From NCBI GenBank assembly GCA_965226785.1, contig CBDDEC010000004.1, forward strand, positions 1,324,521 through 1,388,520: 64,000 nt of DNA, read 5' to 3'. Below the pieces are notes generated by a model. It was not told where the DNA came from. It was given only the letters and a program-made list of their open reading frames with translations, and did not search any database. The position numbers and the translations under genes are program-made. How positions within the stretch are numbered: position 1 is the first letter of the stretch; every line of letters starts with the position of its first letter. Origin of the DNA: Dehalococcoidia bacterium (lineage in GTDB: Bacteria > Chloroflexota > Dehalococcoidia > UBA2979). Below are positions 12,235 to 64,000 of the stretch, piece after piece.

Positions 12235-13533
12235 ATGATCGCGAGCGCGCGAGAACTACTGGAGGCGACGCCCGAAGAGGTCGAGATGTCGTCAGAGCGC
12301 TTGCAGCGGCTAAGTCGCGTCATCAAGGGATATGTCGATAGCGGCCGCTACCCCGGCGCGATCACGATGATCGCCCGACGCGGACGTGTCGTGCACTTCG
12401 AGACTCACGGATTCGCCGATATCGAAGGGAAGCGGCGGATGGAGCACGACACGATCTTCCGCATTTACTCGATGACGAAGCCGATCGTCAGCGTGGGGCT
12501 CATGACGCTATATGAGGAAGGGCGGTTCCAGCTAGACGACCCCGTTTCGAGCTACCTACCGATCTTCGATGGAGCTCGAGTACTTGAGAGCGGCACCGCC
12601 GAGCAGCACACGTTGCGCCCGGCCCGGCGAGCAATGACGATCCGCGACCTCTTGACACACACGTCGGGCCTCGTCGCAGCTGGCGTCTCGACAACCGTTG
12701 GCCAACTCTACCAGAAAGCGAGGATAGGCGGCCCTCGCGGGCTGCACTCCGACGAGACACTTGCAGACGTCATGAGTAGGCTCGCTGCCCTGCCACTGAA
12801 TTGCGACCCTGGAACACGGTTCAACTATGGGATCTCGAAGGATGTCGTCGGACATCTCTGTGAGATCCTATCCAGCCAGTCGCTAGATGTGTTCCTCCGG
12901 GAGCGCATCTTTGGCCCGTTGGGCATGACGGACACTGGTTTCAGTGTGCCAACGTCGAGCCTTAATCGCTTCGCAGCATGCTACCGGCGACGGGACGGCT
13001 CGGTGCCGATGTTCGAGTTAGACGACCCCCCTAGCAAGAGAAGCCCTTATGTCGGTCCGCGGCGGTACTTCTCTGGCGTCGGGGGGCTAGTGTCGACGGC
13101 GACCGACTACATGCGTTTCGGCAAGATGCTCGCCGACCGGGGTGAGCTCGATGGGACACGCGTTCTCGGACCGCGCACACTCGAGCTGATGACTATGAAT
13201 CATCTGCCAGGCGGACTCGATCTGAAGGCGATGGGGCATGGTGGGGATACCATTCAGCCCACAACTCCCGAAGGCGCGCCGCGTCAGGTCGTGGATAACA
13301 CGTTCGCGGGCGTTGGTTTTGGGCTTGGTTTTGCAGTACTTCTCGATGGCGCGACCGCCCAGCAGCCGGGGGCGGCGGGTGAGTACTGGTGGGGGGGTGC
13401 GGCCTCGACCGCGTTCATCGTCCAACCGGCGGATGACCTTGTAATGCTACTGATGGCTCAGCTCCTACAGTACGGGGAGTACCCTATCCGTAGCGAGCTA
13501 AGAGCCACAACCTATCAAGCGATCTTGGACTGA
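12235..13533 (+). CDS. Serine hydrolase, beta-lactamase/esterase (class C / penicillin-binding fold) family
   Basis: S-x-x-K active-site motif (IYSMTKP). 432 aa. Also carries HTSGL and related motifs. Confidence 0.75.
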   Translation: MIASARELLEATPEEVEMSSERLQRLSRVIKGYVDSGRYPGAITMIARRGRVVHFETHGFADIEGKRRMEHDTIFRIYSMTKPIVSVGLMTLYEEGRFQLDDPVSSYLPIFDGARVLESGTAEQHTLRPARRAMTIRDLLTHTSGLVAAGVSTTVGQLYQKARIGGPRGLHSDETLADVMSRLAALPLNCDPGTRFNYGISKDVVGHLCEILSSQSLDVFLRERIFGPLGMTDTGFSVPTSSLNRFAACYRRRDGSVPMFELDDPPSKRSPYVGPRRYFSGVGGLVSTATDYMRFGKMLADRGELDGTRVLGPRTLELMTMNHLPGGLDLKAMGHGGDTIQPTTPEGAPRQVVDNTFAGVGFGLGFAVLLDGATAQQPGAAGEYWWGGAASTAFIVQPADDLVMLLMAQLLQYGEYPIRSELRATTYQAILD

Positions 13534-13861
13534 AGCGCGGATCTCCACGTTCCCAGACGGGCGCCCACAGGAATACGAGCCTACAGTCACAGACCTGTCG
13601 CACTATTCACAGGCAGATGCAACGGGCCGCGCAGGATAAAGTCTCGTCTGGCAGCGCGCCCCGACCGCAGCCCTCACCACAATCTGCCAAGGACATAAGC
13701 CCCACAGTGCGAAGTACCGACCGTGAGGGTGAGGCATGATTAGTGTTGGGTCCGGGCTTCGTTCATGCAACACAAGGAGTGGAGGGCGGGGTCACGCTCG
13801 CCTTTCTCGAGCGGATAGATCCATATGCGCGACGGCTACGAGCGAGCTTGGGCGCTCGCAG

Positions 13862-13957
13862 GATCGCGCGGCGCCTGCAATCCGAGCGACGCGTGACAGC
13901 CGGGAGGGCATCAGCGCGTTTCTTGAGAAACGCCCGCCTCAATTCGAGGGGTACTAG
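13862..13957 (+). pseudogene. Remnant 3' end of an enoyl-CoA hydratase gene (…REGISAFLEKRPPQFEGY*)
   Basis: C-terminal crotonase signature, comparable to AEGFSAFVERREPHFEGK at 18500. No upstream body in frame. Abuts IS3 copy 3. Confidence 0.45.
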
Positions 13958-14048
13958 GCCCAACAACGACGGCGCCGGCGTTCGACGGCAGCCTGCCGAA
14001 GGACCACCCGATGCCTATGAACCGCCCCGGGTTTAGTGGAGACTCGGT

Positions 14049-15257
<1,209 letters not shown>

Positions 15258-25219: not shown

Positions 25220-26427
<1,208 letters not shown>

Positions 26428-26489: not shown

Positions 26490-26760
26490 GCACGTCAGTG
26501 GGCGAGGGTCGAGATCACCGAAGAGGGCATGCGTGAGGGCATGCAGATCGAGGATTCGAACATCTCGGTCGAGGACAAGATTCGGCTACTCGACGCACTC
26601 TCGGAAACGGGGCCTCAACGATCTCCGTTGGCTCGTTCGTGAGCCCGCGGTACACGCCACAGATGGCGAACATCGATGAAATCGTCAGTGGCTTCCGCCC
26701 GAGCGAGCGCGTGACCTATACCTCGCTGGCACTGAACGAGCGAGGCGTGCAGCGCGCCCG
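26490..26760 (+). pseudogene. HMG-CoA lyase-like (HMGL-like) gene fragment, 5' cut by IS3 copy 4, frameshifted
   Basis: Two frames read VEITEEGMREGMQIEDSNISVEDKIRLLDALSETG and then SPRYTPQMANIDEIVSGF...LALNERGVQRA. These match the conserved HMGL N-terminal region. Confidence 0.5.
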
Positions 26761-26762
26761 CG

Positions 26763-27062
26763 GGCACAGTCCCCGGTCGAGTCTCTCGTTCGCCGTCTCT
26801 CGACGGACCCCTCGGACGTCGAGTCCGACGACATCCACATTCCGTCCTTCCAACGCGGCTACGTCTGGACAAAACCGCAAGCAGATCGCTTCATCGAGTC
26901 GCTGCTGCTTGGTCTTCCCGTGCCTGGAATCTTCTTGTGGAAGGATCCGAGCAGTCAGCGCCTTGCGATCATCGATGGATCTCAACGGCTCCGAACATTG
27001 AAGTTCTTCTACGACGGAGTCATCCGGGGACGCGAGTTCTCGCTAGAGCGCGTGCATCGATG
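26763..27062 (+). pseudogene. DUF262 (GmrSD/ParB-like N-terminal) domain fragment
   Basis: DIHIPSFQRGYVWTKPQADRFIESLLLGLPVPGIFLW...IIDGSQRLRTLKFFYDG matches the DUF262 motif (IP.FQR.YVW......LI.S...G.PIP.I......IDGQQRLTT). Stops after about 95 aa. Confidence 0.5.
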
Positions 27063-36406: not shown

Positions 36407-36409
36407 CGC

Positions 36410-55974: not shown

Positions 55975-56246
55975 GGGAATGCAACGCTGCTGGCCTGCTG
56001 CGATGTCATCATCGCTACCGAGAGCTCCACGATCGGTGTGAGCGCGCCGGCTGTCGTGGAGGCGAGCGGGCTGGGCACCCACTCTCTTCAGGAGATCGGC
56101 TCGATGGCATTACAGGCGCGCAACGGCAACGTCGACATCGTCGTCGAGGATGACGCCGCCGCAGTCGCGACCGCGAGGAAGTACCTCGGATACTTTCAGG
56201 GCCCGATTGAGCCGGGAGAGGCTCCGGATCAGCGCCGGATGCGGCC
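55975..56246 (+). pseudogene. Acyl-CoA carboxylase carboxyltransferase (AccD/PccB-like) internal fragment, cut by IS-B
   Basis: VIIATESSTIGVSAPAVVEASGLGTHSLQEIGSMALQARNGNVDIVVEDDAAAVATARKYLGYF matches the conserved carboxyltransferase region. Reads into the IS-B IR. Confidence 0.5.
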
Positions 56247-57364
56247 GTGGGACGGCAAAACCTCATGCGGCCCACCGATACTCATGATGCAAGCCTCCTA
56301 GCACCGGCTTGCTGTCGACTCGCTGGCTCGGCATCCGCTGCACCGGCTTGCGTCCCTCCGGAGAGTCGAGCGCCAATGACCGATGCGGCCGCATCGCGTT
56401 GTAGTGCTGGACGTACTCACCAAGCACCCGCCGGAGATGTTGTTCGTTGACCGCGATGACATGGTCGAGACACTCGCGCCTGAGCGTGCCGATGACGCGC
56501 TCGGCGATGGCGTTGGCATTCGGCGCGTGCACCGGAGTCAGAATCGTCTCGATCCCGAGCCGTCGAGCGCGTGCGATGAAGTCTCCGCCATAGCTACGGT
56601 CGCGGTCTCGGATCAGGAACCCTGGCTGCTGACCCCAGGCGGTCGCCTCGATCATCTGCTGCCAGATCCAGGGCGCGTTCGGATGCTCCGTGACGTTCCA
56701 GTGCCGGATGCGGCGCCGGTCGTGGTCGATCACGATGAGCACGTAGAGCGTGCGGAAGGCGAGCGTCTGGACCGTGAACAGATCGGCGGCCCAGATGCTG
56801 GACGCGTGGTTGCGGAGAAACGTGCGCCACGACTGGCTCGGGGGGCGCCGCAGCGCTTGCCGGCGGTAGCGACTCACGGTGCGGGCGCTGACCTCGAAGC
56901 CAAGGGCACGCAGCTCGCCGACGATGCGGACGGCGCCCCACCGCGGATGCTCAGTGGCGATGCGCAGGATCAGCCGCTGCCACTCGGCGGGAATGTGGGG
57001 ACGCCCAGGTCCGCGACGACTCTTCCAGCGCCAGTAGGCGCGCCAAGCAGAACGATGCCAGCGCACCACCGTGTCCGGCTCGACCATCACGAGCGTGCCT
57101 CGCCAGCCGGACCAACCACGTGCCAGCAGTGACCAGAGTCGGCGGTCGTGGCGACGGAGCCGCGGTCGACGACGGCCCCTTGTGTAGACGGCGAGCTGAT
57201 GCCGCAGCGCCAAGTTCTCGAGGACGAGATCTCGGCGGGCGCGGACCGATGCGAAGAGTGCTGCGACAAGCAGACGGAGGTAGAGCACAGACGAGCCTCT
57301 CGTGGCTCGCCGATACTCTGCTATCTCAGGACAGACCTGCACCTATCAGGTTTTGCCGTCCCAC
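56247..57364 (-). mobile_element. IS-B (IS481-like) insertion sequence, intact copy
   Basis: IRs as above. 359-aa transposase at 56263-57342. Confidence 0.85.
56263..57342 (-). CDS. DDE transposase (IS481-like family)
   Basis: 359 aa. Reference sequence for the IS-B family in this window. Confidence 0.85.
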   Translation of the reverse strand: MQVCPEIAEYRRATRGSSVLYLRLLVAALFASVRARRDLVLENLALRHQLAVYTRGRRRPRLRRHDRRLWSLLARGWSGWRGTLVMVEPDTVVRWHRSAWRAYWRWKSRRGPGRPHIPAEWQRLILRIATEHPRWGAVRIVGELRALGFEVSARTVSRYRRQALRRPPSQSWRTFLRNHASSIWAADLFTVQTLAFRTLYVLIVIDHDRRRIRHWNVTEHPNAPWIWQQMIEATAWGQQPGFLIRDRDRSYGGDFIARARRLGIETILTPVHAPNANAIAERVIGTLRRECLDHVIAVNEQHLRRVLGEYVQHYNAMRPHRSLALDSPEGRKPVQRMPSQRVDSKPVLGGLHHEYRWAA

Positions 57365-57464
57365 GGGCCGAGATGAAGTCGCCCAGCTCGACGACCCGCA
57401 GGCCCTCGAGCGCTTGATCCGCCATCGGCGTGAGCCTCCGTCCGTACCGTTCCGGCGCGGGGAC

Positions 57465-58463: not shown

Positions 58464-58736
58464 TCAGGCCTGGGTGCGCTCGCGCCGCTTGCGGACGAGC
58501 TTCACATCGAGCCGGTAACCGAGCGCCTCGGCGAGCGTCGCGAGGCGGTCGATCGAGGGGCTCTGCGCGCCCGATTCGAAGCGGTTGATCACGGGTTGCG
58601 AAACGCCGGCCCGCTCCGCAAGATCCCGCTGCGACATACGTCGGTCGAGCCTCGCCTTGATGAACTGCCGAATCACCGCATAGCGAGGAGCGAGCCGGTC
58701 AACCTCGGCCTGCAGGCCAGGCCGTTCGCGCAGCAT
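58464..58736 (-). CDS. XRE-family helix-turn-helix transcriptional regulator (about 90 aa)
   Basis: MSQRDLAERAGVSQPVINRFESGAQSPSIDRLATLAEALG is a canonical HTH_XRE. Confidence 0.75.
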   Translation of the reverse strand: MLRERPGLQAEVDRLAPRYAVIRQFIKARLDRRMSQRDLAERAGVSQPVINRFESGAQSPSIDRLATLAEALGYRLDVKLVRKRRERTQA

Positions 58737-58749
58737 TCGTTCCCACACT

Positions 58750-59273
58750 TCCGACGCTTTGAAGGGCTTGATCGCGCACAGTTTCGCCGGGTAGTGCGCT
58801 ACTTGAAGCGCTGGAAAGACGAGCACTTCCCCTCTGATGGCTGGGCCGCGCCTCCAGGCATTGCTCTGACGGTCGCCGCGTACCACGACCTTGAGACCAG
58901 GTTCCTCGACAGCCTGACAGGCAAGCCCGACGATCTCGCCGCACTCCGAACGCTCGTTTCGGCGATGCTCGTGCGCTTTCAGGACCGCTGGGATGCCGAC
59001 GAGCAGAAGCTAGTTCGGCGGATCGCGATTCTTCGCCCGGTGCCCCCCTCTGATGACCTGCTTGGCCGCATGACCGCGAAGCAGATGGGCGCCCTCGAGG
59101 GTGAGTTGATCAGATTGCAGGACGCCCTGAGCGAGGCCGCCGACGCCGTCGATCCGGTCGAGGCCTGCAAGAGACTACAGGAAGCGTTCGGGGACGATTT
59201 CCCGGTGCCGGCGAAGAAGGACACGGCGTCGCAGCATGCCCCTGCGATCGTCTCGTCGAGTAGCAGCGCCTGA
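58750..59273 (+). pseudogene. C-terminal helical domain of a cGAS/DncV/OAS-like nucleotidyltransferase (CD-NTase-like); catalytic N-terminal half absent
   Basis: RVVRYLKRWKDEHFPSDGWAAPPGIALTVAAYH matches the OAS/cGAS C-domain motif (LIRLVKHW...LPPQYALELLTVYAW). No in-frame start codon and no GS...DxD upstream. The region is overlapped antisense by the XRE gene. Confidence 0.45.
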
Positions 59274-59335
59274 ACTGGGGGCGAGCCACGGATCGTCACG
59301 ACGCCATCCTGAGCGAGTTCGAGAAGCTCGGCCTC

Positions 59336-59947
59336 TTGAAGGCTCCCCACCGGGTCGATCCGGGCGGTTCGGCTGTTGCCGCGCTCGAGGGCCAGGCCGA
59401 CGTCGAAGAGCATGAGGTCACACTGCGCCTGGTCCTTGACCGCGACTTTTCACTTCGGCTACCGCAGTGGTTCCTGCAACCATCGAACGCGCTCGGCACA
59501 ATCCCGCATGTGGACGAGAACGGTTTGATCTGCGTCGCCGACCCTGAAGGGCTGGTGCTGGACCGGCATCGACCCGTTGCAGTCATCCGCGAAGCCCTCA
59601 TGAAGGCGATGGGCGTGCTCGAGGACGGGGTCAGCGGGCGCAACCATGCCGACTTCGTCGACGAGCTCGAGTCGTACTGGCGGCGCCTTCCTAAGGCGAC
59701 CAGCGTGACATCCGTGATGGAGCCCACGAGCAACGTCCACGATCTCCAGATGGTCGTGAGCCACGAGGGTGAAGTACCGCTGGTCGGCGCCACTCACGAC
59801 GATGTCGTCGCCTTCAATAACGGTGCCGCACTCGGGGGGAAGGTAACGCTGCGTGGTGGTCTCTACCTCCCTCTCGAGCCCGGTTCCACGGTGGTCCCTC
59901 CCGCTGTCCCGCCACATTATTCGAGTGCGGCCGGTTTGACGGTCTGA
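59336..59947 (+). CDS. Bacterial E2-like (UBC-fold) protein, 3' end truncated by IS-C
   Basis: HEVTLRLVLDRDFSLRLPQWFLQPSNALGTIPHVDENGLICVADPEGL matches the UBC core (F.L.I.FP.DYP..PP.V.F.T.IHPNV...G.ICLDIL), with the catalytic Cys in LICV. The last about 14 codons and the stop lie inside the IS-C left IR (59906 onward). Confidence 0.5.
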   Translation: MKAPHRVDPGGSAVAALEGQADVEEHEVTLRLVLDRDFSLRLPQWFLQPSNALGTIPHVDENGLICVADPEGLVLDRHRPVAVIREALMKAMGVLEDGVSGRNHADFVDELESYWRRLPKATSVTSVMEPTSNVHDLQMVVSHEGEVPLVGATHDDVVAFNNGAALGGKVTLRGGLYLPLEPGSTVVPPAVPPHYSSAAGLTV

Positions 59948-61029
59948 CGGCTGCGGTCGAGCCTTCCGCTGGGGCGGGAGGCCGAAATGCTGATCTACCT
60001 GCAGCTCGTGTTGTGGACGTTACGCCGAGCGGCTCTCGCGCGTGGGGATCTACTGCTCGAGAACCTCGCGCTTCGCCAGCAGCTGGCGATGTACGAGCGG
60101 CACCCGACGATCCGCGATGGCGACCGCGCCTTCTGGAGCCTCCTCGCGGGCCGGTGGCCAAACTGGCGCAGAGCGGTTGTTGTCGTGAGCCCCGAGACGG
60201 TCGTGCGCTGGCACCGCGCTGGCTGGCGTCGCTATTGGCGCTGGAAGAGCAGGGGCCGGCGGGCCGGTCGTCCTCGGATCCCCGAGGAGGCGCGTGAGCT
60301 GATCGCCCAGATGTCGCAGGAGAACCGCTGCTGGGGTGCGCGTCGAATCCAGGGTGAGCTACGCGCCCTCGGCTACGAGGTGAGCGCCGAGACGGTGCGC
60401 CGCTACCGACTCCAGGCGCTGCGCCGTCCGCCGTCGCAGCGCTGGCAGACCTTCCTTGCCAATCACCGCAAGGAGATCTGGGCCACCGACTTCTTCACGG
60501 TCCCGACCGTGCTCTTCCAGACCCTCTATGTGCTGTTCTTCGTCTCGCACGACCGCCGCCGCATCGAGCACATCAACGTGACGGCGCATCCGACGGCTGC
60601 GTGGGTGTGGCGCCAGGTGATCGAGGCGACGCCATGGGGCAGCCGGCCGCGTTTCCTCATTCGAGACCGCGACCGCTCCTACGGCGGCGACCTCATCGCG
60701 AAGGCGAGCGGCATCGGCATCGAGACGGTGCTGACGCCGATCCGGGCACCGCAGGCGAACGGGATCGCAGAGCGCCTGATCGGGACGCTGCGCCGCGACT
60801 GCACCAACCACATCATCCCACTGAGCGAGCGCCACCTCCGCAGGGTCCTGCTCGAGTACGTCGCCTACTACAATGCGACGCGGCCGCATCAGACGCTTGG
60901 GCAGGAGACGCCAGAAGGTCCGCGGGAGGTGCGGCTCGCCGGGATGGTGCGCGGAGACGAGGTGCTGGGCGGGCTCCACCACCGCTACGAACGAGTCGCT
61001 GCCTAGGGTTCCGAGTTTTGTGGCAGGAC
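59906..61029 (+). mobile_element. IS-C: IS481-like element, diverged paralog of IS-B
   Basis: IRs tgtcccgccacattattcgag / ccgagttttgtggcaggaca. The 339-aa transposase at 59987-61006 is about 55% identical to the IS-B transposase (same VVRWHR...GRPRIP and DDE motifs). Confidence 0.75.
59987..61006 (+). CDS. DDE transposase (IS481-like family, IS-C)
   Basis: 339 aa. LENLALRQQLAMY, VVRWHRAGWRRYWRWKSRGRRAGRPRIP, DDE core. Confidence 0.8.
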   Translation: MLIYLQLVLWTLRRAALARGDLLLENLALRQQLAMYERHPTIRDGDRAFWSLLAGRWPNWRRAVVVVSPETVVRWHRAGWRRYWRWKSRGRRAGRPRIPEEARELIAQMSQENRCWGARRIQGELRALGYEVSAETVRRYRLQALRRPPSQRWQTFLANHRKEIWATDFFTVPTVLFQTLYVLFFVSHDRRRIEHINVTAHPTAAWVWRQVIEATPWGSRPRFLIRDRDRSYGGDLIAKASGIGIETVLTPIRAPQANGIAERLIGTLRRDCTNHIIPLSERHLRRVLLEYVAYYNATRPHQTLGQETPEGPREVRLAGMVRGDEVLGGLHHRYERVAA

Positions 61030-61692
61030 AGCCGGATGCGGCGCCGGTCGTGGTCGATCACGATGAGCACGTAGAGCGTGCGGAAGGCGAGCGTCTGGAC
61101 CGTGAACAGATCGGCGGCCCAGATGCTGGACGCGTGGTTGCGGAGAAACGTGCGCCACGACTGGCTCGGGGGTCGCCGCAGCGCTTGCCGGCGGTAGCGA
61201 CTCACGGTGCGGGCGCTGACCTCGAAGCCAAGGGCACGCAGCTCGCCGACGATGCGGACGGCGCCCCACCGCGGATGCTCAGTGGCGATGCGGACGATCA
61301 GCTGTCGCAGCTCTGCGGGAATCCGGGGTCGTCCGGAGCGGCGACGACTCTTCCAGCGCCAGTAGGCGCGTCAAGCAGAACGATGCCAGCGCACCACCGT
61401 GTCCGGCTCGACCATCACGAGCGTGCCTCGCCAGCCGGACCAACCACGTGCCAGCAGTGACCAGAGTCGGCGGTCGTGGCGACGGAGCCGCGGTCGACGA
61501 CGGCCCCTTGTGTAGACGGCGAGCTGATGCCGCAGCGCCAAGTTCTCGAGGACGAGATCTCGGCGGACGCGGACCGATGCGAAGAGTGCTGCGACAAGCA
61601 GACGGAGGTAGAGCACAGACGAGCCTCTCGTGGCTCGCCGATACTCTGCTATCTCAGGACAGACCTGCACCTATCAGGTTTTGCCGTCCCAC
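61030..61692 (-). mobile_element. IS-B partial copy (transposase N-terminal two-thirds only, with in-frame stop), truncated by IS-C
   Basis: Right IR ends at 61692. Transposase N-terminus at 61371-61670 ends at a TGA (ccaagc to tcaagc). The sequence stops at the IS-C right end. Confidence 0.8.
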
Positions 61693-61829
61693 GAGCCGAC
61701 CGGATGCTTGTGGTAGAGCCAGTCCATCAGGCCGCGGACCTGCTCACGGTTCCAGACGTACCCGCGCTGAAACTCGGGGAGAGCGACGCTCCCGAGGTCG
61801 ATCTGGTCAAGGATCGTGCTGACCTTCAT
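61693..61829 (-). pseudogene. DUF262 (GmrSD-like) N-terminal fragment, cut by IS-B
   Basis: MKVSTILDQIDLGSVALPEFQRGYVWNREQVRGLMDWLYHKHPVGS matches the DUF262 consensus. The frame continues into the IS-B IR. Confidence 0.55.
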
Positions 61830-61963
61830 TCATGCGCCCTTCCAGTGCAGACGCAGAATACAGCGAGCGGGACAGCTCGAAGCTGAAACGGCTAGGATTC
61901 ATGTGATCGACCCGCCAGCAGACGCTCCAGCCCCTCAGGGTTGGGTCGCTAGAACGACCGCCC

Positions 61964-64000
61964 ATGGCTCCCTCGCCGACCGTGACCCCGGACGAGTTCG
62001 TCGCCAAGTGGGCGCCGAACGCCGGGCGGGAGCGGTCGTCGTCACAGGAGCACTTCATCGACCTCTGCCACATGCTCGGCGTCCCTACACCGAACGACGC
62101 AGACCCGACCGCCAAGGATGAGTACGCCTTCGAGAAGGGCGCTTCGAAAACCGGCGGAGGCGACGGCTGGGCCGACGTATGGAAGCGGGGCTACTTCGGC
62201 TGGGAGTACAAGGGCAAGAAGCACCCCAACCTCCCCGCCGCATACAAACAGCTGCTCGACTATCGCGAGGACCTCGAGAACCCTCCGGTGCTCGTCGTCT
62301 GCGACATGGACCTGATCGAGGTCCACACCAACTTCACTAACACCGCCCCGCAGATCCTCGAGGTGCGCCTCAGCGACCTCACCGACAACACCGAGGAGGC
62401 GCTACGCATCCTGCGCTCGGTGATGTCCGACCCGGAGGCGCTGCGGCCGGGCCAAACGCCTGAGGAGATCACCGAGGCCGCCGCCAGCCAATTCGCCGTG
62501 ATCGCGAGGTCGATGCAGGACCGCGAACACGCACCCGAGGATGTCGCACACTTCCTGAATCGCGTGTTGTTCTGTCTCTTCGCCGAGGACGTGGGCCTGC
62601 TGCCGGAGCGGATCGTGACTGAGCTGATCGAAGGGCGGTGGCGCGACCCGGTTAGGTTCGCGGAGGGCCTCTCAGAGCTCTTCCGCCACATGTCGTATGG
62701 CGGACACTTCGGCGTCCACGAGATCGCCTGGTTCAACGGGGGACTGTTTACCGGCGACGAGGTCCTCGAGTTCACACGCGAAGAGCTGGGAACCGTCGCC
62801 GAGGCGTCAGGTCTCGATTGGTCGCGCGTGGAGCCGGCGATCCTCGGCACACTGTTCGAGCGCGGGCTCGACCCCGAGAAGCGCGCACAGCTCGGCGCTC
62901 ATTACACCGACCGCGAGAAGATCCTGATGGTCGTCGAACCAGTCGTCATGCGGCCCCTGCGCCGCGAGTTCGAAGAGATGCAGCAGGGCATCGAGACACT
63001 GGCCGAAGGCCAGTCGCAAGCGCCACTCACACGAGACGGGCGACGGCGAGCCAACCTCCCGAAGTGGGAGCGTGACGCGCAGGCGCTCTACGGGGCCTAC
63101 CTCGATCGCCTGCGCGCTGTCCGAGTACTCGACCCCGCCTGCGGCTCCGGCAACTTCTTGTACGTCACGCTGGGCCTGCTCAAGGACCTTGAGCGCGACG
63201 CGATGCGCTGGGGGGCCGAACGCCTTCGCCTGATCGGTCAGTTCCCCGAGGTGGGACCGCAGAACATGCTCGGCATCGAGATCAATCCTTACGCCCGTGG
63301 GTTGGCAAGCGTTTCGCTCTGGATCGGCCATATCCAGTGGATGCGCAACAACGGATTCGGCTACCCGCGCGACCCAGTCCTCGGTGCCCCCGACAACATC
63401 GAGCAGCGCGACGCCATCCTCACCCAAAAGGACGAGGAGAAGCCCATATCGGCGGAGTGGCCACAGGCGGAGTTCATCGTCGGCAATCCACCGTTTCTGG
63501 GTGACCGTCGCATGCGTGAACAGCTTGGCGACGAGTATGTCGATCGTCTCCGGTCAGCGTATCTACAACGAGTCCCAGCTGGTGCCGACTTGGTCTGTTA
63601 CTGGTACGAGCAGGCGCGTTCCCACATCGAGGGTGGATTCGCACGCCGTGCAGGCTTGCTCGCGACTTCGAGCATTCGGAAAGGTCAGAACAACAAGGTT
63701 GTGAAGCGAATCAGCGAGTCGGGTGCGCTCTTCGAGGCGTGGTCTGCCGAGGACTGGGTCGTCGAAGGAGCCGCCGTCGAGGTCTCGATCGTTGGCTTCG
63801 ACGATGGGAGGGAGTCGCTCAAGAGGCTCGACGGCGAGGCAGTAGATCGCATCAACTCTGATCTCACGACCGGGTCAGACCTGACTCAGGCCGTGAAGCT
63901 GCGCGAGTGCCGCGGCTTGGCCTTCATGGGCGACATCAAGGCCGGCTCGTTCGAGATGGACGGCGACGATGCCAGGAGAATGCTGGGGCGTGCTGGGAAT
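61964..64000 (+). CDS. MmeI/PglX-family N6-adenine DNA methyltransferase (type IIL R-M enzyme or BREX PglX-like), 3' partial (runs off window)
   Basis: 679 codons with no stop from the ATG at 61964. MmeI-like N-terminal domain (EFVAKWAPNAGRERSSSQEHFIDLCHMLGVPTP...DGWADVWKRGYFGWEYKGKK with D...EYK). SAM motif I VLDPACGSGNFL and motif IV FIVGNPPF. Missed by the ORF track because there is no in-window stop. Confidence 0.75.
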   Translation, partial: MAPSPTVTPDEFVAKWAPNAGRERSSSQEHFIDLCHMLGVPTPNDADPTAKDEYAFEKGASKTGGGDGWADVWKRGYFGWEYKGKKHPNLPAAYKQLLDYREDLENPPVLVVCDMDLIEVHTNFTNTAPQILEVRLSDLTDNTEEALRILRSVMSDPEALRPGQTPEEITEAAASQFAVIARSMQDREHAPEDVAHFLNRVLFCLFAEDVGLLPERIVTELIEGRWRDPVRFAEGLSELFRHMSYGGHFGVHEIAWFNGGLFTGDEVLEFTREELGTVAEASGLDWSRVEPAILGTLFERGLDPEKRAQLGAHYTDREKILMVVEPVVMRPLRREFEEMQQGIETLAEGQSQAPLTRDGRRRANLPKWERDAQALYGAYLDRLRAVRVLDPACGSGNFLYVTLGLLKDLERDAMRWGAERLRLIGQFPEVGPQNMLGIEINPYARGLASVSLWIGHIQWMRNNGFGYPRDPVLGAPDNIEQRDAILTQKDEEKPISAEWPQAEFIVGNPPFLGDRRMREQLGDEYVDRLRSAYLQRVPAGADLVCYWYEQARSHIEGGFARRAGLLATSSIRKGQNNKVVKRISESGALFEAWSAEDWVVEGAAVEVSIVGFDDGRESLKRLDGEAVDRINSDLTTGSDLTQAVKLRECRGLAFMGDIKAGSFEMDGDDARRMLGRAGN

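Follow-up and report, generated by a model that had tools for sequence, protein, structure and literature searches.

A predicted stand-alone Type IIL (MmeI-family) restriction-modification gene beside a DUF262 remnant cut short by an insertion sequence

The right-hand end of a 64,000-nt stretch from a Dehalococcoidia bacterium (contig CBDDEC010000004.1; the whole stretch is referred to here as the window) raises the question of what kind of defence gene is encoded there. A DUF262 remnant on the minus strand stands divergently beside the first part of a large methyltransferase gene on the plus strand. The preliminary description of this DNA regarded the two as a defence pair and offered two identities for the methyltransferase, either a single-chain type IIL restriction-modification enzyme or the PglX component of BREX. 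Here, we followed the gene beyond the window through identical and closely related sequences, compared the encoded protein with MmeI and PglX, and examined what is left of its neighbour. The coordinates of the features are collected in Table 1.

Table 1. Features at the locus, in window coordinates
Feature	Position	Strand	Basis
IS-A, 1126 bp, ends TGTCC...GGACA	59905..61030	+	about 70% nucleotide identity to IS-B
IS-A transposase, 339 aa, HTH_32 + rve_3	59987-61006	+	profile match
Partial IS-B, 663 bp	61031..61693	-	self-BLAST, 97-99% to other copies; end repeats
DUF262 (GmrSD/BrxU-like, ParB-like NTPase domain) relic, about 46 codons	61694..61829	-	Pfam GmrSD_N, PADLOC
Divergent intergenic region, 134 bp, presumed promoter(s)	61830..61963	.	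coordinates
MmeI-family Type IIL/IIG gene (predicted), first 679 codons	61964..64000	+	open frame; identical P0001; PADLOC; PDB
PD-ExK endonuclease domain at the N terminus, aa 1 to ~190	61964..62533	+	Pfam MmeI_N E 3.4e-9
Catalytic codons D71, E81, K83	62174-62176, 62204-62206, 62210-62212	+	alignment to MmeI
Helical spacer ('arm') domain, aa 192-262	62537..62749	+	Pfam MmeI_hel E 2.7e-13
Gamma-class N6-adenine methyltransferase, aa 378-615	63095..63808	+	Pfam MmeI_Mtase E 3e-27; Eco57I E 9e-5
Motif I DPACGSGNFL, aa 390-399	63131-63160	+	(almost) invariant across 107 homologues
Motif IV NPPF, aa 508-511	63485-63496	+	motif reading

Extent, domains and family of the MmeI-like protein

The methyltransferase frame starts with the ATG at 61964 and remains open for 679 codons up to position 64000, in agreement with the length of at least 679 aa given in the preliminary description, and the lack of a stop before the window end is the sole reason why the gene was missing from the ORF track. 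The window covers 70% of the gene, and the full length of 965 aa was drawn from a database protein (P0001), which showed 100% identity across all 679 window residues, and from sister contigs. The 286 codons past the window end, as read from P0001, encode the rest of the target recognition domain (TRD) and the C-terminal domain, and the continuation to the stop was seen in the DNA of two contigs that are 99.5-99.8% identical to the window. Both P0001 and another protein, P0121, are uninterrupted 965-aa ORFs in which all the catalytic motifs are present. An early stop beyond 64000 with loss of the TRD, named beforehand as the outcome that would speak against the assignment, was not found, as the 965 aa of P0001 span the TRD. 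The accompanying rule that about 920 aa points to an MmeI-like enzyme and about 1200 aa to PglX proved loose, since the characterised MmeI-family enzymes measure 908-1184 aa (PMC2731913), a range into which the 965 aa of the window protein falls.

The E-values for the domains ranged from 1e-9 to 1e-283, which excludes a chance match. The PADLOC profile REase_MTase_IIG matched with an E-value of 6e-283, and positions 14-903 of a 912-position PADLOC IIG profile were covered by aa 11-954. In Pfam, MmeI_N, MmeI_hel and MmeI_Mtase passed the threshold; the MmeI_N match spanned aa 10-184 when the 679-aa fragment was used as the query and was not reported with the full-length query. MmeI_TRD (26.6 vs 27) and MmeI_C (20.6 vs 27) stayed just below the Pfam cutoff. 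The nuclease motif reads D71-X9-E81-Y-K83 (62174-62212), and E23 and E53 are likewise conserved in the nuclease domain. In the alignment to the MmeI structure 5HR4, E23, E53, D71, E81 and K83 correspond to MmeI E25, E51, D70, E80 and K82, which have been described as conserved catalytic residues (Morgan et al. 2009, PMC2731913). Among the homologues of at least 900 aa, D71, E81 and K83 were invariant (107/107). The MmeI-type N-terminal domain with a D...EYK motif, previously read from the letters alone, was thus confirmed by the Pfam match and by the aligned triad, and the SAM motifs I and IV were both located (Table 1). FPFP, a feature of the MmeI family at the end of the TRD (PMC2731913), was found at aa 835 of the full-length protein, past the window. 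The TRD was the least conserved segment among the homologues (43-50% vs 60-70% elsewhere), as expected of an enzyme family with diversifying specificity.

A phmmer search of the PDB returned MmeI (5HR4, E 1.2e-43) as the only match, and the alignment was collinear over query residues 11-341, 378-581 and 784-840. Membership of the MmeI family has been defined by a similarity to MmeI of E < 1e-20 (Morgan et al. 2009, PMC2731913), and the value obtained here lies below that threshold. The similarity extends over the whole length in the order nuclease, spacer, methyltransferase, TRD and C-terminal domain, the single-chain domain order of the MmeI family (PMC2731913; structure 5HR4, PMC4833311), and the motifs follow the gamma-class order, with DPACGSG at aa 390, then NPPF at 508, and FPFP at 835. 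An AlphaFold2 model of the full-length protein, built from 57 homologues, was of low confidence (pLDDT 61.6, pTM 0.31); when this low-confidence model was used in Foldseek, MmeI 5HR4 was matched at 1e-16 with 864 columns aligned. Like the members of the MmeI family, the window protein has neither a companion methyltransferase nor conserved neighbours: no second DNA methyltransferase gene was found flanking it, either upstream in the window, where the stump of DUF262 lies among IS copies and remains of CBASS genes, or in the about 1.8 kb of downstream DNA visible in L072, a contig with 99.8% identity. In contrast to this shared organization, the protein is only about 20-25% identical to MmeI itself, and it is part of a large clade, still uncharacterised, that comes mainly from Chloroflexota/Dehalococcoidia MAGs. 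Moreover, its TRD core (aa ~582-783) has no sequence alignment to that of MmeI, so that the recognition sequence is not predictable.

The neighbours of the relatives examined were housekeeping or unrelated genes. Large ORFs beside the relatives (up to 1198 aa) were considered as BrxC or PglZ and rejected, as eight of the ten scanned had Pfam matches, namely to an ABC transporter, carboxylases, a glycine dehydrogenase, a protease, an SMC-like ATPase, a TPR protein and the DUF262 protein of L062; the remaining two gave no family match. An enoyl-CoA hydratase gene lies directly upstream of the MmeI homologue in L070 and further upstream in the window; it was rejected as a conserved position marker, given that the window's hydratase has no ortholog beside the relatives.

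The DUF262 remnant, the intergenic gap and the insertion sequences

The divergent gap measures exactly the 134 bp reported before. It is presumed to carry the promoter(s), but no match to the sigma-70 consensus was found in these 134 bp. A short inverted repeat, CGAGC-N6-GCTCG, forms one hairpin-like site at 61864-61879. The gap is nearly identical in three aligned sequences; over this stretch, the identity of the sister contigs L069 and L072 to the window is 99.5-99.8%.

The DUF262 ORF (61674..61829, minus strand, 51 aa) runs on into IS-B, and its last five codons (WDGKT) together with the stops are supplied by the terminal repeat of IS-B (ATCAGGTTTTGCCGTCCCACG, 61673-61693). The frame of the fragment thus continues without a break into the IS-B inverted repeat, as described before, and the junction at 61693 is the very coordinate at which that description begins. 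The stump corresponds to positions 1-45 of the 199 positions of GmrSD_N (Pfam, E 3e-9), and within the GmrSD/BrxU/SspE group (DUF262 + DUF1524 Type IV) it is closest to the BrxU-like HEC-05 (PADLOC, E 1.4e-9). It keeps LPEFQRGYVW and ends before DGQQR, a motif that is essential (bioRxiv 10.1101/2024.01.29.577857). The gene is longer in L069, where 82 codons remain and DGQQR is reached, in L072, with 63 codons, and in L073, with at least 124. A protein search for a full-length homologue gave only fragments of at most 144 aa, and the 712-aa gene of L062 was used as the full-length query in their place; this sole full-length neighbour found differs from GmrSD/BrxU/SspE in combining GmrSD_N with Schlafen AlbA_2. 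When the 712-aa L062 protein and a 124-aa close homologue were used in tblastn, no DUF1524/HNH or other C-terminal part was found in the window, and the matches at the locus were confined to the first 46-54 residues of the queries. In comparison with GmrSD/BrxU/SspE proteins, the stump keeps 46 of about 600-700 codons and is without DGQQR, the linker and the HNH/DUF1524 nuclease domain, so that it cannot be a functional member. Judged by what is left of its sequence, the DUF262 gene is dead and not a functional GmrSD/BrxU-like member. A functional defence pair is thus not supported, since the partner is a 46-codon relic whose remainder is nowhere in the window. Nor did we observe that DUF262 proteins often accompany enzymes of the MmeI/PglX type: the pairing is rare, occurring in one of the 68 relatives plus the window's own sublineage. 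A second, unrelated GmrSD_N fragment lies at about 26.7-27.1 kb of the window.

At least seven copies of IS-B are present in the window. Of the partial copy next to the stump, the end at which the transposase starts is preserved; its terminal repeat (61673-61693) is intact, and ~99 codons from the start of a DDE (rve) transposase are left. The copy is truncated internally at the equivalent of position 56703 in the complete copy 56246-57365. The right end of IS-A meets the IS-B interior, while its left end meets the truncated CBASS Cap2 gene. No target-site duplication flanks IS-A, so this arrangement arose by rearrangement or deletion, and no consistent pattern of target-site duplications was found for IS-B and IS-A. 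Riddled with IS copies, the locus is a defence island in decay, which also contains CBASS remnants, a 5'-truncated CD-NTase and a 3'-truncated Cap2.

In two near-identical strains, the IS-B/DUF262 junction lies 54 and 110 bp further out, and the junction strains share 99.5-99.8% identity in the adjoining DNA, which comprises the stump, the gap and as much of the MmeI-like gene as is visible. The three junctions are 54-56 bp apart and involve two IS-B subtypes, and all of them spare the MmeI-like gene and the 134-bp upstream region. Three different positions in near-identical strains indicate recurrent IS-mediated erosion of the DUF262 gene, presumably by deletion; given the two subtypes, a simple series of deletions starting from one copy does not account for them. 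As in IS-mediated adjacent deletion or IS-IS recombination, ever shorter remnants of one gene directly border an intact IS end; the distal DUF262 part is gone, and further IS copies are nested in IS. The mechanism that we infer here would involve two IS-B subtypes, unlike serial deletion from a single copy.

Alternative readings of the locus

Given that PglX and MmeI have the methyltransferase and TRD architecture in common, the gene could instead be PglX (BrxX) of a BREX system, with the stump as a BrxU-like accessory and the other brx genes past the window, which we regard as extremely improbable. The window protein shares with PglX/BrxX a homologous scaffold of gamma-class adenine methyltransferase and TRD, PglX/BrxX modifies one strand of an asymmetric site, as the MmeI type does, and PglX profiles gave weak matches over motif I. 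In addition, the best PADLOC match of the stump is the BrxU-like HEC-05, and BrxU is a DUF262 protein within the BREX locus (PMC8565348; bioRxiv 10.1101/2024.01.29.577857). However, the protein missed the cutoffs of the NCBIfam PglX models by a factor of more than 25 (BREX_6_MTaseX, 31.5 bits vs 900; BREX_1_MTaseX, 17.3 vs 500), the PADLOC PglX match of 22.7 bits covered aa 383-454 only, which is motif I, and Foldseek with the low-confidence model gave E-values of 0.2-1.4 for BrxX vs 1e-16 for MmeI. PglX is about 1200 aa long and, to our knowledge, is without a PD-ExK nuclease domain and always sits inside a brx operon, so that the 965 aa and the invariant PD-ExK triad of the MmeI-like protein count against it. 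At the position upstream where brxC would be expected on the same strand, the divergent stump was found instead, and downstream in L072 a UvrD-like start is followed by IS-B, with no pglZ. The search for brxA/brxB/brxC/pglZ/brxL that the preliminary description had called for found none in any visible flank, that is, upstream in the window and 1.8 kb downstream in L072, and no BREX genes were found in the visible flanks of three close relatives' contigs or in the inspected flanks among 68 distant relatives. The PglX reading is therefore largely refuted, and of the two identities offered at the outset only type IIL stands. The features together decide for a Type IIL/IIG enzyme, predicted to be nuclease-proficient, and not for a BREX component.

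The downstream context, which was drawn from the sister contigs L069, L072 and L073, allows a further reading. In L072 and L069, a GTG ORF with the Walker A sequence GPPRSGKT begins 5 bp after the MmeI-like stop; it has weak Pfam matches to AAA_19 and ADDB_N, and two database homologues carry PF00580 UvrD-helicase. With this UvrD/AddB-like gene as its partner, the MmeI-like protein would be the specificity/methylation subunit of a helicase-dependent multi-gene system (YeeA/YeeB/YeeC-like, DISARM DrmMI-like or MADS-like) that has since been broken by IS-B. DrmMI profiles matched aa 505-870 in PADLOC (E 9e-67) and mad2 matched at 1e-12, and MmeI homologues flanked by helicases have been described (Morgan et al. 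2009, PMC2731913). These helicase-flanked homologues are, however, the ones without PD-ExK, which is intact and invariant here, and the helicase-like ORF was not found in the flanks of any of the 68 relatives (68/68). The DrmMI matches fall in the C-terminal half only, which is common to all these methyltransferases, while the best profiles are of Type IIG and cover the whole length. The window protein thus lacks the hallmarks of the DISARM DrmMI/YeeA type, namely the absence of PD-ExK and adjoining system genes, and we consider a helicase-dependent system very unlikely. We find it very unlikely, too, that the gene is decaying with the IS-riddled island, either as an inactive relic or as an orphan with methyltransferase activity only. 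The surroundings are broken (DUF262 stump, 5'-truncated CD-NTase, 3'-truncated Cap2, nested IS copies), the gene was called in three pieces in L072 and L073, and several naturally disrupted MmeI-family genes have been found (Morgan et al. 2009, PMC2731913). Against this, P0001 and P0121 are unbroken, the contigs with the fragmented versions bear the label '2x' and are apparently low-coverage assemblies, in which indels are likely errors, and three independent IS junctions end before the gene and its upstream region, consistent with gene retention. It is also very unlikely that the three junctions and the downstream gene reflect either a selected, recurrent loss of the Type IV nuclease or a two-gene system of Type IIL enzyme and helicase. 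In the former case, independent inactivations would have struck a modification-dependent (Type IV) nuclease, which may have been incompatible with methylation by its divergent Type IIL partner or with something else that this partner does, and the restriction-modification gene would have been kept by addiction or phage pressure, that is, by selection and not neutral decay. In the latter, a nuclease-proficient Type IIL enzyme would act with the UvrD/AddB-like gene 5 bp past its stop in a previously undescribed combination.

Proposed activity of the enzyme and meaning of the locus

Very probably, the locus contains a stand-alone 965-aa Type IIL (MmeI-family) restriction-modification gene beside a dead DUF262 stump destroyed by IS-B. 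One polypeptide would carry, in order, the PD-ExK endonuclease, the helical arm, the gamma-class N6-adenine methyltransferase, the TRD ending in FPFP and a C-terminal helical domain. If it acts like MmeI, the enzyme would bind an asymmetric site of 6-7 bp, methylate one adenine on one strand and so mark the host DNA, and cleave incoming DNA that lacks the mark some two helical turns from the site, cleavage in the MmeI family falling about 20/18 nt away; it would work without a partner methyltransferase and without BREX proteins. The stump is what remains of a GmrSD/BrxU-like Type IV gene that probably once stood as the divergent partner of the MmeI-like gene. IS-B, an IS with a DDE transposase that is abundant in the window, has destroyed this gene, and recurrent deletion appears so far to have left the MmeI-like gene and the region upstream of it untouched.

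The locus is an ordinary, if untidy, defence locus, and the enzyme belongs to the well-known MmeI family. Its analysis clarifies an annotation, as proteins under the NCBI name 'class I SAM-dependent DNA methyltransferase' become predicted Type IIL restriction-modification enzymes, not BREX components. It also draws attention to a large clade of MmeI relatives of about 970 aa, which occurs mainly in MAGs of Chloroflexota/Dehalococcoidia and in which the TRD is hypervariable. Given that MmeI-family enzymes are prized as scaffolds for specificity engineering (PMC4833311, PMC2731914), this clade is a possible source of new specificities. Moreover, the locus provides a small, clear example of insertion sequences dismantling a defence island, with different stages of the erosion visible in related contigs.

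Full length and family assignment of the MmeI-like protein

The plus-strand frame starting with the ATG at 61964 was free of stops for 679 codons up to base 64000, in agreement with the preliminary description of a large methyltransferase ORF running off the window. The ORF listing omits this frame because it has no end inside the window, and the other features of that description were likewise found at the coordinates given. A protein database search retrieved a 965-aa protein (P0001) with 100% identity across all 679 window residues, and the same gene was found complete to its stop codon in two metagenomic contigs, L069 and L072, which share 99.5% and 99.8% DNA identity, respectively, with window 61693-64000, indicating that a further 286 residues are encoded past the window end. 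Pfam placed the MmeI_N, MmeI_hel and MmeI_Mtase domains in the 679-aa fragment (see the table), and near-threshold matches to MmeI_TRD (26.6 vs a cutoff of 27 bits) and MmeI_C (20.6 vs 27 bits) in the 286-residue part. Thus, the early stop and missing target-recognition domain (TRD), named in the preliminary description as the case against such an enzyme, were not what we found. MmeI_N scored 37.7 bits with the fragment and was unreported by Pfam for full-length P0001, presumably a HMMER filter effect without biological meaning. With PADLOC, both the fragment (E 8e-204) and the full protein (E 6e-283) matched a Type IIG restriction enzyme-methyltransferase model best, and the 965-aa protein covered a IIG profile of 912 positions practically end to end.

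Homologues of MmeI have been defined by E < 1e-20 to MmeI, PD-(D/E)xK residues aligned with MmeI D70, E80 and K82, and whole-length similarity (Morgan et al. 2009, PMC2731913), and all three hold for the MmeI-like protein. MmeI (PDB 5HR4) was the only solved structure with a sequence match (E 1.2e-43); blocks 11-341, 378-581 and 784-840 aligned collinearly, with E23, E53, D71, E81 and K83 aligned to MmeI E25, E51, D70, E80 and K82, respectively. In an alignment of 107 homologues, each of at least 900 aa, D71, E81 and K83 did not vary, and DPACGSGNFL (motif I) was invariant or nearly so. Conservation among homologues was lowest in the TRD at aa 651-800 (43-50% identity vs 60-70% elsewhere), as expected where specificity diversifies. 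In the 965-aa protein, motif IV NPPF lies at aa 508 and FPFP, which marks the TRD end in the MmeI family (PMC2731913), at aa 835, and its length falls within the family range of 908-1184 aa (PMC2731913). AlphaFold2, run with 57 homologues, gave a poor model (pLDDT 61.6, pTM 0.31). In a Foldseek search with this model, MmeI still came out on top (E 1e-16, 864 columns), with BrxX well behind (E 0.2-1.4), a likeness at the level of predicted structure that weakly corroborates the family assignment. Taken together, the sequence features identify a predicted new, uncharacterised member of the well-known MmeI family.

By analogy with MmeI, whose motifs and domain order it shares, the gene product most likely works as MmeI does. 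The TRD and methyltransferase domain would bind an asymmetric 6-7 bp site, and at host sites a single adenine, on just one of the strands, would be methylated with S-adenosylmethionine. At unmodified sites in incoming DNA, the N-terminal PD-ExK domain, kept roughly two helical turns off the site by the helical arm, would cut both strands ~18-20 nt away. Since the TRD core and MmeI cannot be aligned, the recognition sequence is not predictable here.

Comparison with PglX and the neighbouring genes

The preliminary description had left the choice between a Type IIL enzyme and the BREX methyltransferase PglX. The two NCBIfam BREX PglX models, with cutoffs of 900 and 500 bits, scored 31.5 and 17.3, respectively, which speaks against PglX; PADLOC PglX models reached only ~23 bits, confined to motif I. 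No BREX genes were seen upstream within the window, where the ORFs with Pfam matches at 36-56 kb are housekeeping genes with IS copies scattered among them, and the 1.8 kb 3′ of the gene in L072 contain the short initial part of an ORF and one whole IS-B. Relatives at 34-66% identity are encoded at 68 loci, mostly in Dehalococcoidia/Chloroflexota MAGs, by ORFs of mostly ~945-1000 aa. A Pfam scan of ten large ORFs adjacent to relatives revealed no BREX or DISARM components: two were without a match, and the others encode an ABC transporter, carboxylases, glycine dehydrogenase, a protease, an SMC-like ATPase, a TPR protein and one DUF262 protein. Likewise, no brx/pgl genes were present among the Pfam-annotated neighbours at two further homologue loci (L070 and L071). 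This survey agrees with the report that nuclease-containing MmeI homologues are without consistently flanking genes (Morgan et al. 2009, PMC2731913). Overall, the MmeI-like gene is predicted from its sequence to encode a stand-alone Type IIL enzyme, which settles the question in favour of the first alternative, whereas PglX falls with its missed cutoffs and the lack of BREX genes at the loci surveyed.

A GTG ORF begins 5 bp past the MmeI-like stop codon in L072 (12906-13220) and L069 (12904-13001). It carries a Walker A motif, GPPRSGKT (ISGPPRSGKT...LVLVPT), and looks like the beginning of a UvrD/AddB-type helicase. In L072 a complete IS-B (13222-14347) interrupts it after ~105 codons. A 5.8-billion-protein database yielded just two homologues, both fragmentary. 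A partner of the MmeI-like enzyme is kept as a rival reading of this ORF. We treat it as an adjacent gene and not a partner, because it was absent beside all 68 relatives searched and the helicase-flanked MmeI homologues in the literature are those without the nuclease motif (PMC2731913).

The DUF262 stump and the insertion sequences

Features of the locus, in window coordinates unless residues are given
Feature	Position	Strand	Remark
Putative IS3-type DDE transposase ORF	25220-26110		
Second DUF262/GmrSD_N N-terminal fragment	26680-27060	+	Pfam E 6e-20, profile positions 12-77
Region of very high IS density	34900-61700		
IS-B right ends	near 36408, 43464, 47438, 50015, 53512, 57365, 61693		nearly all one orientation
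XRE/HTH_3 regulator gene	58464-58886	-	divergent from truncated cyclase
Type II CBASS operon remnants	58596-59947	+	
CD-NTase fragment	ORF 58596-59273	+	N-terminal half missing; homology only from ~58761
Cap2 E1-E2 gene, first ~190 codons	59336-59904	+	cut by IS-A
IS-A	59905-61030		ends TGTCC...GGACA; ~70% identical to IS-B
Partial IS-B copy beside stump	61031-61693		
IS-B terminal inverted repeat	61673-61693		
DUF262 stump ORF	61674-61829	-	51 aa
Intergenic region	61830-61963		134 bp between start codons
Inverted repeat CGAGC-TGTCCC-GCTCG	61864-61879		flagged terminator-like, minus strand
MmeI_N	aa 10-184		679-aa fragment, Pfam
MmeI_hel	aa 192-262		679-aa fragment, Pfam
MmeI_Mtase	aa 378-615		679-aa fragment, Pfam

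The minus-strand neighbour, starting MKVSTILDQIDLGSVALPEFQRGYVW, matches positions 1-45 of 199 of Pfam GmrSD_N (DUF262; E 3e-9), and its nearest PADLOC model is HEC-05, BrxU-like. As noted in the preliminary description, its frame enters the IS-B terminal inverted repeat. The repeat, ATCAGGTTTTGCCGTCCCACG, is reached after ~46 codons, and five IS-derived codons (WDGKT) and a stop close the frame. The 46 codons left contain neither the DGQQR motif nor the HNH/DUF1524 nuclease, both of which are required according to mutagenesis (bioRxiv 10.1101/2024.01.29.577857). No further pieces of the gene were found anywhere in the window by tblastn with a full-length 712-aa homologue from locus L062 and a 124-aa close homologue. 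The stump is a pseudogene relic, indicating that the divergent defence pair proposed earlier is real as an arrangement but historical, not functional. The 134-bp gap was likewise exact, but its description as a promoter region was an assumption, as a consensus scan found no sigma-70 match in it. The inverted repeat within the gap could be an operator or chance; the DNA around it is almost unchanged in L069 and L072.

The pairing is uncommon: among 68 relatives, tblastn and an HMM from 120 close DUF262 N-terminal homologues detected just one, the Arenicellales MAG locus L062, whose MmeI homologue has a DUF262 gene at a distance of 10 kb or less, coding for a divergent 712-aa GmrSD_N + Schlafen AlbA_2 protein. 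It is present in the gene's own sublineage, namely L069, L072 and the close relative contig L073, in which the MmeI-like protein is ~71% identical and the DUF262 frame stays open over 124 or more codons.

IS-B (~1120 bp; terminal repeats CGTGGGACGGCAAAAC...GTTTTGCCGTCCCACG) encodes a 359-aa HTH_32 + rve transposase, for which NCBIfam was undecided between IS3 and IS481, both scores being under cutoff. At least seven copies or fragments, with 92-99% mutual identity, lie in the window's last 30 kb. The copies in the IS-dense region fall into two terminal-sequence subtypes, and several are themselves interrupted. IS-A adjoins, with its right end, the site where the partial IS-B is truncated internally and, with its left end, codon ~190 of Cap2; no target-site duplication was found at IS-A, indicating that DNA was lost between the Cap2 gene and the partial IS-B.

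Alignment (A1) of three closely related sequences placed the IS-B end at three different sites, leaving 246 bp of DUF262 in L069, 190 bp in L072 and 136 bp in the window, with the IS terminus (…CCCACG) intact at each junction and the 134-bp intergenic region and MmeI-like gene untouched by all three. The IS end in L069 belongs to a second IS-B subtype, identical to the copy 3′ of the gene in L072, so the junctions are not merely a series of deletions that all started from the same copy. As the simplest account we infer either repeated adjacent deletion by the transposase or insertion of an IS with subsequent IS-IS recombination; on each occasion the distal DUF262 and whatever lay beyond would have been removed. 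Within 7862-14347 of L072, two directly oriented IS-B copies flank the stump together with the MmeI-like gene and the beginning of the UvrD-like ORF, a layout resembling a composite transposon, with no flanking target duplication evident around it. The locus is a decaying, IS-riddled defence island, in which this strain-to-strain series of junctions is the only mildly unusual element.

In the CBASS remnants upstream, the CD-NTase fragment matched positions 173-340 of the 340-position PADLOC Cyclase profile (E 4e-49) and the Cap2 fragment matched Prok-E2_B (E 1e-17) and PADLOC E1-E2 (E 1e-41). The XRE/HTH_3 regulator, with weak PADLOC matches to capH (E 3e-8) and RmrA (E 1e-8), may be a CBASS-associated regulator or antitoxin. 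The second DUF262 fragment is unrelated to the stump, with only ~26-30% identity to the DUF262 homologue P0128 and the L062 protein as queries; it lies directly 3′ of the transposase-like ORF and seems to be a further disrupted gene for Type IV restriction.
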